A stretch of DNA of 61,574 nucleotides, counting the filler. It is 6 parts of 6 records of this genome, joined end to end, with 100 filler letters (N's around TTAATTAATTAA, not from the genome) between each part and the next. Parts side by side here need not be neighbours in the genome. Positions count along the whole stretch, not along the records: positions 12,958 to 23,422 come from DRR723986_14207; 5 more parts are not named here. One strand, 5' to 3'. The notes beneath the pieces were generated by a model, which was not told the DNA's origin, searched no databases, and saw only the letters and a program-made list of their open reading frames with translations. Made by a program: the position numbers and the translations under genes. Of this stretch, positions 12,858 to 15,197 are shown one piece after another. Within the stretch, counting starts at the first letter, position 1; each line of letters opens with the position of its first letter.

Positions 12858-12957
12858 NNNNNNNNNNNNNNNNNNNNNNNNNNNNNNNNNNNNNNNNNNN
12901 NTTAATTAATTAANNNNNNNNNNNNNNNNNNNNNNNNNNNNNNNNNNNNNNNNNNNN
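12858..12957. other. artificial contig spacer (N44-TTAATTAATTAA-N44)
   Basis: Seen directly; the linker has stops in all six frames. Confidence 0.98.
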
Positions 12958-13005: not shown

Positions 13006-13033
13006 AAAAAGGGCCGCCCGAGGGCGACCCTTT
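13006..13033 (-). terminator. rho-independent terminator
   Basis: Minus strand AAAGGGTCGCCC-TC-GGGCGGCCCTTTTT, a GC hairpin followed by a U tract. Confidence 0.85.
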
Positions 13034-13190
13034 CCGAGAAATTAAGGAGGTGGGGTCGGTTAGACCAAGGCCCACCTGGGATGGATTGCGCAGCTAAGGC
13101 TGCCTAGCCGCGTCCCTCCCAGACTGTCCCGACGCACTTCTCCGATATCCCTCTAGACATGGGCACCTCCTTTCTGATTGTGAACTCGTA
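13006..13190 (-). ncRNA. candidate alphaproteobacterial sRNA (recalls BjrC1505-type, GAAAGGAGGTG..ATGTCT) containing an 18-codon ORF at 13104-13160
   Basis: TTGACA at 13223-13218, strong SD AAAGGAGG before ATG 13160 (MSRGISEKCVGTVWEGRG*), own terminator. Family resemblance is from memory, not a search. Confidence 0.55.
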
Positions 13191-13229
13191 CTAGGAGGGT
13201 GCCATAGATTTTGTGTTTGTCAAAAGTTT

Positions 13230-13853
13230 TTATGCAACCTGTGCTGTCAGTTTCGCCGTAAGCACCCGAAACGGCACAAGTGCCACCAAAGCGAGCGACA
13301 GTTTGACAAGCCAGTCGGCCACGGCCAGCGACACCCAAAGCGGCGCTTGCGGCCCGGCGCCAAGCAGCGGCAAAACCTCACCGGCCCAGGACACATCGTT
13401 GCCGGGTTCAAGGAAGGTCAGCGCACCCGAGAAGGCAATCGTAAAGAAAATCGCCGTATCCACCGAAGACCCAACCAAAGTAGACGCCAAAGGAGCCCGC
13501 CACCAAGCGCCCTCGCGCAGGCGATTAAAGACAGCGACATCAAGCAGTTGCGCGGTCAGGAAGGCAAGGCCGGAGCCAACCGCGATGCGCAGGGTCACCC
13601 ATGGGCCGAACTCGCCCATGATCTGGGTTCCGATCAGCGACCAGATGACACCGACGACGAATCCGGCAACGACAACTTTGCGCGCGGCAGTAACGCCGTA
13701 GACGCGGTTCATGACGTCGGTGACAAGGAAAGCCACCGGGTAAGTGAAGGCCCCCCAGGTCAGCCATTGACCGAAGAGAAACTGGACGAGGATATTTGAG
13801 GCGACAACAACGGTCGCCATGGCAAGAATGCCGGGCAGGTAAGAGCGGGTCAT
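13230..13853 (-). CDS. yhhQ: queuosine precursor (preQ0/preQ1) transporter, VUT/YhhQ family
   Basis: SNILVQ, TWGAFTYP.AFL.TD, RIA.GS..AFL.AQLLD, DT..FF.IAF. True start likely ATG 13853; the TTG at 13874 lies inside the riboswitch. Confidence 0.92.
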   Translation of the reverse strand: MTRSYLPGILAMATVVVASNILVQFLFGQWLTWGAFTYPVAFLVTDVMNRVYGVTAARKVVVAGFVVGVIWSLIGTQIMGEFGPWVTLRIAVGSGLAFLTAQLLDVAVFNRLREGAWWRAPLASTLVGSSVDTAIFFTIAFSGALTFLEPGNDVSWAGEVLPLLGAGPQAPLWVSLAVADWLVKLSLALVALVPFRVLTAKLTAQVA

Positions 13854-13861
13854 GTATATGG

Positions 13862-13890
13862 TCCGTTTTGACAAGGTAGCGGAGACTTGG
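13862..13890 (-). promoter_or_regulatory. preQ1 class I-like riboswitch aptamer (compact variant)
   Basis: CCAAG-UCUCCGCUAC-CUUG-UCAAAA-CGGA: P1 CAAG/CUUG, 10-nt loop, A-rich tail, P2 UCCG/CGGA pseudoknot. Ends 8 nt upstream of the yhhQ ATG. Confidence 0.75.
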
Positions 13891-13955
13891 CCCTGATCAT
13901 CAGGGACGGCGCGCTTTAACGCAGGCGAGGGGCCGATGGCAAGCCCCGCGCCATG

Positions 13956-14012
13956 GAAGACTTTTCAGGAAAAGTCTTCAGGTGCTGCAAAAAATCTTCG
14001 TGAAGATCTTTG
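13956..14012. repeat. two adjacent AT-rich palindromes (REP-like / possible terminator)
   Basis: GAAGACTTTTC-AG-GAAAAGTCTTC at 13956-13979 and ATCTTC-GT-GAAGAT core at 13994-14007. Confidence 0.55.
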
Positions 14013-15197
14013 TCAGCTCATGACCTCGGCCACAGCTTTGGCAACCAGCGGGATGGTTTCTGGGGTCAATCCTGCCACGTTCATCCGGCTGTCGAAGACA
14101 AGGTAGATGCCATGATCTTCCCGCAGGCGTTCAACCTGTTCCGGGCTTGCACCAAGCAGCGAGAACATTCCGCGATGTGCGGCGAGGAACGCAAAACGGT
14201 CAGACCCGGTGATGCGCTGCAACTCGGTCGCCAGTGCTTCCCGGTTGGCTTGCATGCCTTCGCGCATCTCGCGCAGTTCCGTTCGCCAGACATCTGTCAG
14301 GCCAGCATCCCCAAGGATCGTCTGCACCGCCCGCGCACCGTGATCGGGGGGGAAGGCAAAGTTCTGACGGTTGAGCCACGCCAGCATGCCGCCGGTTGCC
14401 GTCGCGGCCTTGTCGTCACCGCAGAGCGCAAGCGCGATCCCCACACGGTCACGATAGAGGCCAAAGTTCTTGGAACAGGAGGCAGCAATCAGCATCTCGG
14501 GCACCATGCCGGCCAGCAGACGCATCCCGGCGGCGTCTTCTTCAATGCCCTGACCAAAGCCCAGATAGGCCATGTCGACGAAGGGCACCGCGCCGGTCGA
14601 CAGGCACAGATCACCGACAGAGCGCCAGTCGTCCAGCGTCAGGTCCACGCCGGTTGGGTTGTGACAGCAGCCGTGCAGCAGGATCAGGTCACCTTTCTGC
14701 ACACCGGCCAGATCCTCCATCATGCCCGCCCTGTCCAACCCGCCGGTTTCCGCGTCGTAGTAGCGGTATTCGCGCATGTTGAGGCCAAGATAGCTGATGA
14801 TCGCCGGATGGTTCGGCCACGTCGGCGCGCTGATCCAGACCGTTGCATCGGGCGTCAGGCGCTTGACCATTTCCAAGACCTGCCGAACGGCCCCGGTGCC
14901 GCCGGGAGTGCCCGCAGCCGCGAGCCTTGTATGGGGCACCGCATCGGCGAAGAGCAGCCCCTTCATGGCGGCCAGATATCCGGCATCGCCCGCCAGCGCG
15001 ACATAGCCCTTGCTGTCCTGGGTCTTCCAGATCAGATCCTCGGCCGCTTTCACGGCTTTCATCACCGGCGTCTTGCCTTCTGCTGTCTTGTAGACACCGA
15101 CGCCCAGATCGACCTTGTCGTCCCGCGTATCCTCGCGGAACATCTGCATCAGCTGGATGATCTTGTCGGGTTGCGGGGCGATCAGGGTCTCGAACAT
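14013..15197 (-). CDS. tyrB: aromatic amino acid/aspartate aminotransferase (class I, PLP)
   Basis: DLGVGVY, TPGGTGA, PTWPNH, HGCCHNPTG, D.AY.GFG, SCSKNFGLY..RVG. Confidence 0.9.
   Translation of the reverse strand: MFETLIAPQPDKIIQLMQMFREDTRDDKVDLGVGVYKTAEGKTPVMKAVKAAEDLIWKTQDSKGYVALAGDAGYLAAMKGLLFADAVPHTRLAAAGTPGGTGAVRQVLEMVKRLTPDATVWISAPTWPNHPAIISYLGLNMREYRYYDAETGGLDRAGMMEDLAGVQKGDLILLHGCCHNPTGVDLTLDDWRSVGDLCLSTGAVPFVDMAYLGFGQGIEEDAAGMRLLAGMVPEMLIAASCSKNFGLYRDRVGIALALCGDDKAATATGGMLAWLNRQNFAFPPDHGARAVQTILGDAGLTDVWRTELREMREGMQANREALATELQRITGSDRFAFLAAHRGMFSLLGASPEQVERLREDHGIYLVFDSRMNVAGLTPETIPLVAKAVAEVMS

Follow-up and report, generated by a model that had tools for sequence, protein, structure and literature searches.

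A compact preQ1-I-class riboswitch candidate in the yhhQ leaders of Rhodobacterales

PreQ1-I riboswitches are found mainly in Firmicutes and sporadically in gamma-proteobacteria, according to a 2007 survey (PMC2258182) and a RegPrecise-based account (PMC3766115). In all three subtypes of the class, as described in PMC11625349, the ligand is contacted by the C that precedes the 3′ strand of P1 (Watson–Crick), by a uracil of L1, by an adenine of L3 and by the closing G of P1. The ceiling of the Tte pocket is a C7·G11-C30 triple (PMC11625349). Control of yhhQ by preQ1 riboswitches is already known (PMC5372724, PMC10622847), and the accounts in PMC11625349 and PMC10622847 report yhhQ-linked type III elements almost only from gamma-proteobacteria.

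We examined a minimal preQ1-I-type element that a first-pass annotation had placed ahead of a yhhQ gene in a stretch of DNA of 61,574 nucleotides (the window). From the comparisons given below we consider it probable, at roughly 80%, that this element is a compact, type-II-like riboswitch of the preQ1-I class, which would turn off YhhQ translation when free preQ1 is plentiful.

The motif and its surroundings

The string and the coordinates given by the first-pass annotation agreed exactly with the minus strand of the window, where positions 13890 to 13862 read CCAAGTCTCCGCTACCTTGTCAAAACGGA, followed by the spacer CCATATAC and an ATG (13853–13851). Written as an RNA, the 29-base motif is CCAAG-UCUCCGCUAC-CUUG-UCAAAA-CGGA, and its 3′ end lies 8 nt from the yhhQ start codon. 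The whole leader, on the minus strand from 13943 down, runs CTTGCC-N-GTTAAAG-CGCGCC-GTCCCTGATGATCAGGG-CCAAGTCTCCGCTACCTTGTCAAAACGGA-CCATATAC-ATG. The dimensions proposed earlier, a P1 of 4 bp, an L3 of about 6 nt and a Watson–Crick P2 (UCCG/CGGA) covering the GGA, were borne out on the window sequence. The features are collected in Table 1.

Table 1. Features of the yhhQ locus, in window coordinates
Feature	Position	Strand	Remark
Class I/II aminotransferase gene, upstream of yhhQ	14013–15197	–	
Promoter-like TTGCCA (13942–13937), spacer, TAAAGC (13918–13913)	13913–13942	–	From leader pattern counts
P0 hairpin, CCCUGA (13905–13900) with UCAGGG (13896–13891)	13890–13907	–	RNAfold of the window
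P1 5′ strand, CAAG	13886–13889	–	Pairs standard in 94/94; G13886 is the closing G, equivalent to the pocket floor
L1, U13885 and C13884	13884–13885	–	U in 94/94, C in 80/94 (column counts)
P2 5′ strand, UCCG	13880–13883	–	CCG invariant or nearly so; first base covaries
L2, CUAC	13876–13879	–	C13876 is the predicted specificity cytosine, preceded by A13877
P1 3′ strand, CUUG	13872–13875	–	Pair counts from alignment A3
L3, UCAAAA, A-rich loop	13866–13871	–	A13866 is the predicted ligand-edge adenine
P2 3′ strand, CGGA, with SD-like GGA	13862–13865	–	CGG in 94/94
yhhQ/QPTR queuosine-precursor transporter gene	13230–13853	–	ATG at 13853; matches to PF02592 and TIGR00697

The downstream gene encodes a product of 207 aa that matched Pfam Vut_1 (PF02592, E 9.4e-30) and the NCBIfam model TIGR00697, 'queuosine precursor transporter' (97.7 bits, cut-off 50.95), in agreement with the earlier assignment. 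Its description as belonging to a 'Rhodobacteraceae-like' genome is also correct, since the nearest yhhQ relatives are those of Nioella spp., with 91–93% protein identity.

Several other features of the neighbourhood may be recorded. The window carries at 12859–12957 a run of N, TTAATTAATTAA and a second run of N, that is, a contig-joining spacer; hence the window is a draft made of joined contigs, with yhhQ close to the start of one. Beyond the yhhQ stop (13230) there is a terminator-like hairpin (GGGUCGCCC..GGGCGGCCC, then U5, at about 13010–13040), and the region 13010–13229 on the minus strand includes about 190 nt, between that stop and the hairpin, with no ORF or Rfam match. The interval that separates the yhhQ promoter from the aminotransferase stop (14013) holds two inverted repeats, within 13956–14010. 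One, at 13956–13979, is a perfect 10-bp palindrome, GAAGACTTTT/AAAAGTCTTC; the other, at 13991–14010, has T6 after it. Neither was called in a terminator scan. Rfam matches at E ≤ 10 to snaR-A, ZNFX1-AS1_2, mir-4878 and mir-2329 fell on neighbouring hairpins and were rejected as spurious, the one to snaR-A being due to the 10-bp palindrome.

Conservation and structure of the leader

A 27-base degenerate form of the motif matched the window once, even when 3 mismatches were allowed, against 0.00 matches expected from 100 shuffles. The motif was present in 79 of 80 orthologous yhhQ leaders, at the same place ahead of the ATG, the exception being L055. These are the 80 top-ranking loci out of at least 528 related ones in species genomes, and all come from Rhodobacterales (Nioella, 91–93% identical, Phaeobacter, Dinoroseobacter, Rhodovulum, Sulfitobacter and others). 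A covariance model, R1, was built from the motif copies of the orthologous leaders and contains the four P1 pairs only. At E ≤ 0.001 it gave exactly one match in each of 130 out of 151 evenly sampled Rhodobacterales genomes (24–54 bits). The 20 lowest-scoring of these matches were inspected by eye, and all lay just 5′ of an ATG that opens a yhhQ-like N-terminal coding stretch. Placement ahead of this queuosine gene was seen both at the 79 loci and among these weakest matches. The conservation in orthologous leaders that the first-pass annotation called for is thus present.

When 185,579 species genomes were scanned for the exact pattern, at least 120 stretches matched; among the 80 matches listed, the named records were Rhodobacterales genera (Ruegeria, Planktomarina, Rhodobacter, Gemmobacter, Tabrizicola and others) or unclassified alphaproteobacterial and proteobacterial MAGs. 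When R1 was run over 151 genomes sampled across the class Alphaproteobacteria, with strict filters by which weak relatives may have been lost, only the Nioella genome (G001) gave a convincing match (52.6 bits), and in none of the next-best 27 loci did the motif stand before a start codon. (G045 enters this sample as one member of the tally and nothing more.) A search of 301 class genomes gave 65 yhhQ homologues; in the leaders of the 30 best of these the motif was absent, except in that of the same Nioella genome. From the leader, order-genome and class-genome counts, the element is real, present in single copy, tied to yhhQ and, as far as sampled, limited to one order.

Close orthologues of yhhQ that lack the motif were seen at L116 (genome G098, 84% identity), L117 (G263, 74%) and L055 (78%); G098 has QueF. 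In two alphaproteobacteria (loci L132 and L141 of G132 and G286) a different conserved GC-rich leader, ..GGGGCTATGTTCCCCGCTGGGGCGG..AGGAG.., lies about 110 nt 5′ of the yhhQ homologue and may be another regulatory element.

Pairing was examined in A3, an alignment of 94 distinct motif copies made with R1, which leans to P1 and not to P2; a MAFFT alignment (A2) misplaced the gaps of L3, and pair counts were taken from the model-fitted A3. All four P1 pairs were standard in 94/94 sequences. The counts were CG 91 and AU 3 for columns 3–24, AU 89 and GU 5 for columns 4–22, AU 89, UA 4 and GC 1 for columns 5–21, and GC 94 for columns 6–20, so that both sides had changed at two pairs and a G-U appeared at a third. 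The covariation score of the whole structure was 0.091, compared with 0.039 ± 0.006 in shuffles, and was reached by 0 of 500; pairing cells amounted to 87%, against at most 63% when the 3′ partners in A3 were slid by 1–3 columns. The shuffle statistics overstate independence, because the sequences are related and A3 was fitted to P1.

In P2, the variable first pair covaried: of the 56 copies with U, 52 had A opposite it, and of the 10 with C, 9 had G; where the base was G, its partner was A in 13 copies, G in 9 and U in 5 (chi-square p 6e-15, the relatedness of the sequences being ignored). No standard pair was formed there in 27 of the 94 copies. The CCG/CGG pairs were invariant or nearly so, and P2 therefore rests on one covarying pair. 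The covariation of P1 and P2 that the first-pass annotation had suggested as a check was accordingly found at three of the four P1 pairs, which change and stay standard, and at one pair of P2, but the other three P2 pairs vary almost nowhere. It may be noted that RNAalifold, which is unable to draw pseudoknots, chose the CCG/CGG pairs unaided.

Loop lengths bear on the same point. L3 was 5–7 nt long in 86 of the 94 copies, 8 nt in one and 9 nt in seven. A fifth P1 pair was possible in 15/94, and the 9-nt L3 occurred only in copies in which a fifth A-U pair lengthens P1 (7/7). This supports an H-type pseudoknot, in which L3 would be expected to span the P1 groove. The minimum free energy fold of the leader did not surpass those of shuffled sequences (z 0.02), but a pseudoknot lies beyond what nested folding can represent. 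Taken together, the pair counts, the covariation and the RNAalifold result agree with a P1 hairpin whose loop pairs with the 3′ tail to form P2.

Each published preQ1-I pocket residue had been claimed to have a counterpart here, and these counterparts were invariant or nearly so in the 94 distinct copies. The closing pair of the pocket floor, G13886-C13875, was G in 94/94 and C in 94/94 (columns 6 and 20), the equivalent of the specificity cytosine, C13876, was C in 94/94 (column 19), and the first base of L1, U13885, which would face the ligand edge, was U in 94/94 (column 7). The last positions of L3 (columns 28–30) were A in 94, 93 and 93 of 94, which gives 93–94/94 for A13866. Of the ceiling equivalents, C13884 (column 8) was C in 80/94, G13880 (column 14) was conserved in 92/94 and C13865 (column 34) in 94/94. 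Column 18, the base before the specificity C (A13877), was A in 80/94, C in 13 and G in 1. Neighbouring loop positions varied freely, column 17 for example (A45/T22/G15/C12).

Upstream of P1, the pattern TTGNNN-N16–18-TANNNN, ending 18–36 nt (mode 24–26) 5′ of P1, was found in 91/94 leaders, against about 2/94 in 200 shuffles. A promoter scan did not call TTGCCA/TAAAGC; the consensus used in it is from E. coli. From the position of the pattern, the transcription start is predicted near G13907, about 17–19 nt before P1. The P0 hairpin adjoins P1 directly and would lie at the 5′ terminus of the mRNA. Hairpins of 5 bp or more that end no more than 2 nt from P1 occurred in 77/94 leaders (shuffle mean 37/94, maximum 50), and the P0 stems have 93 distinct sequences. 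P0 may stack on the short P1 or protect the 5′ end of the mRNA. Contigs from RNA libraries of two studies reach from within yhhQ to 13888 and 13886, and 13912–14047 was uncovered; contig ends and uncovered stretches are no evidence of transcript ends, and the contigs indicate, weakly, no more than that the aptamer and the yhhQ coding sequence are joined in RNA libraries.

The GGA is a weak Shine–Dalgarno sequence and a candidate ribosome-binding site. As CGG/GGA lies 8–10 nt 5′ of the ATG in 80/94 copies, P2 would bury the sole SD-like purines. A different start, at TTG 13874, would make the motif part of an N-terminal extension of the protein and its conservation that of a coding sequence. 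This start was the one taken by a mechanical ORF call, and it is in frame with ATG 13853. However, among the 85 copies with TTG at this position, 46 were out of frame and 10 had an in-frame stop before the ATG, leaving 29 in frame and open. As the frame is shifted or interrupted in 56/85 copies, conservation of TTG 13874 as a start can be rejected, which is the point that the first-pass annotation had wished to see settled; indels of 1–3 nt in L2 and L3 also speak against coding, and we regard this explanation as very improbable.

Relation to described riboswitch types

With type II of the preQ1-I class (Thermoanaerobacter tengcongensis, B. subtilis; RF00522) the motif has in common the H-type pseudoknot with a G-C closing pair of P1, the 'UC' after the P1 5′ strand and the 'AC' before the P1 3′ strand (PMC11625349), the loop G that pairs with the C after the A-run, the ...UCAAAAC... 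tail and the GGA in the 3′ tail near the start codon. By the column counts it has the type II 'AC' and the bases of the C·G-C ceiling, the triple itself being predicted. However, its P1 has 4 bp where type II has 5, its L3 has 6 nt where type II has about 9, and its P2, UCCG/CGGA, is Watson–Crick throughout, whereas the P2 of type II, GCAG...CAAGG, includes non-canonical pairs. Compared with queC leaders and the RF00522 consensus, therefore, the motif lacks the combination of a 5-bp P1, a long L3 and a non-canonical P2.

Type III, known from the E. coli yhhQ leader (PDB 8fza; PMC10622847), regulates the same gene with an element of similar size (about 30 nt), and resembles the motif also in its canonical, RBS-burying P2, in the 'AC' at the specificity base and in being missed by RF00522 at E ≤ 10. 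Where type III (PMC11625349) has 'UU' after P1 and a pyrimidine loop of 9 nt, the motif has 'UC' and a loop of 10–11 nt; the ceiling pair is A-U in the former and G-C in the latter, and the tails are AAGG and CGGR, respectively. In 39 distinct enterobacterial type III leaders, which read GGG-UUCCCUCAC-CCC...AAAAAGG, the core was nearly invariant; among the 94 motif copies UC occurred in 80 and UU in 4. The features of type III, 'UU' with a short pyrimidine loop and an AAGG tail, are thus not those of the motif.

The SAM/SAH riboswitch (RF01727) occurs in the same host order, is of similar size and forms an RBS-sequestering pseudoknot (PMC6411933). Its gene context is metK, whereas that of the motif is yhhQ, and cmscan gave no RF01727 match at E ≤ 10; this assignment was rejected.

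Profile searches did not place the motif. It was without a match in Rfam 15 at the gathering score (for RF00522, 39 bits, an operational and not a structural criterion) and, whether 251 or 71 bases were searched, without a match to any Rfam family including RF00522 at E ≤ 10; that covariance models could miss it had been foreseen. RF00522 likewise did not match the yhhQ leaders of five relatives' genomes, and gave 0 matches at E ≤ 0.01 in 151 sampled alphaproteobacterial genomes. The RF00522 miss is weak evidence against membership, because the validated E. coli type III yhhQ riboswitch was also without a match to RF00522 or the rest of Rfam at E ≤ 10.

Elements of another kind were found within the same clade. 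Phaeobacter (G002) has a 19.7-bit RF00522 match directly before queC, in a queC...queF cluster, and the same arrangement occurred in 3 of 5 further QueF-positive genomes. The preQ1-I elements of these four QueF-positive Rhodobacterales (L081:1501–1543, minus strand; L274:1501–1543, plus; L275:1501–1543, plus; L276:1501–1543, minus) scored 19–31 bits against the RF00522 cut-off of 39, and are missed by annotation at the Rfam threshold. They read (U)CCGG-UC-GCAG-CCUAC-CCGG(A)-N-AUCAAAAC-AAGG, a sequence pattern which, by the criteria given in PMC11625349 ('AC' before the P1 3′ strand), is that of canonical type II.

When the queC leaders were set beside the yhhQ motif, CAAG-UC-UCCG-CUAC-CUUG-UCAAAAC-GGA, loops and tail were nearly the same. 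In the yhhQ motif L3 is 2–3 nt shorter, L2 is 1 nt shorter and the AA of the tail is lost, whereby P2 becomes four Watson–Crick pairs. The yhhQ leader carries P0 abutting P1 and serves a transporter gene, whereas the type-II-like elements have no P0 hairpin and serve queC. A local alignment of one queC leader with the window motif scored 24, against 13.9 ± 2.8 in shuffles (reached by 6/2000); the same alignment with L021, the yhhQ copy of the queC element's own genome, scored 21 and was not significant (66/2000 shuffles).

With filters off, R1 found neither the queC-type nor the E. coli type III elements, so that the yhhQ motif, the queC type and the E. coli type III are distinct at the profile level. 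Since profile scores connect nothing, it is the architecture and the conserved positions that tie the motif to known types. On the sequence comparison we class the motif as a putative type-II-like variant, a class I member by structure that stands outside the three published consensus descriptions.

A conserved structure in the leader need not sense a ligand: it could be a pseudoknot that masks the RBS constitutively, or a site for a protein or a small RNA. That profile models do not tie the motif to validated riboswitches would fit such a role, and promoter-proximal or RBS constraints could explain part of the conservation. Against this, the unpaired equivalents of the preQ1 contacts are invariant while a neighbouring loop position (column 17) is free, and the element is specific to a queuosine gene and close to the preQ1-I element in the queC leaders of the same clade. 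We consider a non-sensing structure quite improbable.

Proposed function and queuosine supply

For the preQ1-I reading, the following course of events may be proposed. The mRNA would start near 13907, with P0 abutting the 4-bp P1. The P1 loop would pair with the downstream CGGA, forming P2 and closing the H-type pseudoknot, a pairing seen by comparison of the copies. To judge from the conserved positions, preQ1 would be sandwiched by two G-C pairs, the one that closes P1 and that of P2, where C13876 (Watson–Crick), U13885 and A13866 would read it as in the solved class I structures. Binding would stabilise P2 and bury the GGA 8 nt from the ATG, so that the ribosome could not load. By analogy, this mechanism would be that established for the Tte and E. 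coli preQ1-I riboswitches, in which the ligand promotes P2, the RBS is occluded and translation is turned off.

The queuosine genes of the hosts were examined by six-frame searches of draft genomes, and absences are accordingly provisional. TGT, QueA and QueG were found in 5/5 relatives, QueF in 1/5 and QueC clearly in 2/5. In the Rhodobacterales order sample QueF was present in 44 of the 151 genomes, namely in 31/130 genomes with the motif compared with 13/21 without it (Fisher p 0.0012, phylogeny ignored; the 21st motif-less genome was taken as G453 by elimination). By the pathway rules described in PMC11130926, preQ1 has to be imported by genomes that have TGT, QueA and QueG but lack QueF; an importer under the control of a preQ1-sensing switch fits this, and in such genomes the switch would meter the imported preQ1.

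Alternatively, the ligand of the same fold might be a different 7-deazapurine or purine, namely preQ0, queuine or guanine. YhhQ substrates do differ, being preQ0/preQ1 in E. coli and queuine in Chlamydia (PMC11130926), the P2 and L3 of the motif differ from those of all three described subtypes, and ligand-switched variants are known in other riboswitch classes (PMC11625349). The class I ligand-contact positions, however, are all kept, and 4/5 relatives lack QueF but have QueA and QueG, for which salvage of preQ1 is predicted (PMC11130926). As described in the same source, preQ0 is of little use without QueF, and users of queuine are without QueA/QueG. We therefore think another ligand unlikely.

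A wider reading joins these points, and we offer it as a tentative one that we would not yet favour. The yhhQ motif may be an undescribed fourth subtype of preQ1-I that arose from the type II queC switch of the clade by trimming of L3 and regularising of P2, with a 5′-terminal P0, stacked on the 4-bp P1, as an integral part of the aptamer, and it may be the sole queuosine-related switch in the approximately three-quarters of motif-bearing Rhodobacterales that lack QueF.

A full-text literature search found no paper that links a preQ1 riboswitch to Rhodobacterales or to an alphaproteobacterial yhhQ; the alignments of McCown et al. 2014 (PMC4145258), and figures such as Fig. 2A of PMC5372724 and Fig. 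1C of PMC11625349 with their supplements, may already contain alphaproteobacterial cases. The kind of element and the logic of its gene are well known, and the surprise to a specialist would be modest. If the assignment is right, it would extend the preQ1-I class to Alphaproteobacteria, where Rfam-based annotation sees none, and show to what extent the smallest riboswitch fold tolerates trimming with its pocket kept; R1 offers a ready annotation model for a single-copy regulator present in most Rhodobacterales. The presence of QueF in only 44/151 genomes suggests that riboswitch-metered salvage of preQ1 is widespread in this abundant marine clade. Should the reading as a fourth subtype prove true, preQ1 would be a scavenged and exchanged micronutrient for marine roseobacters.
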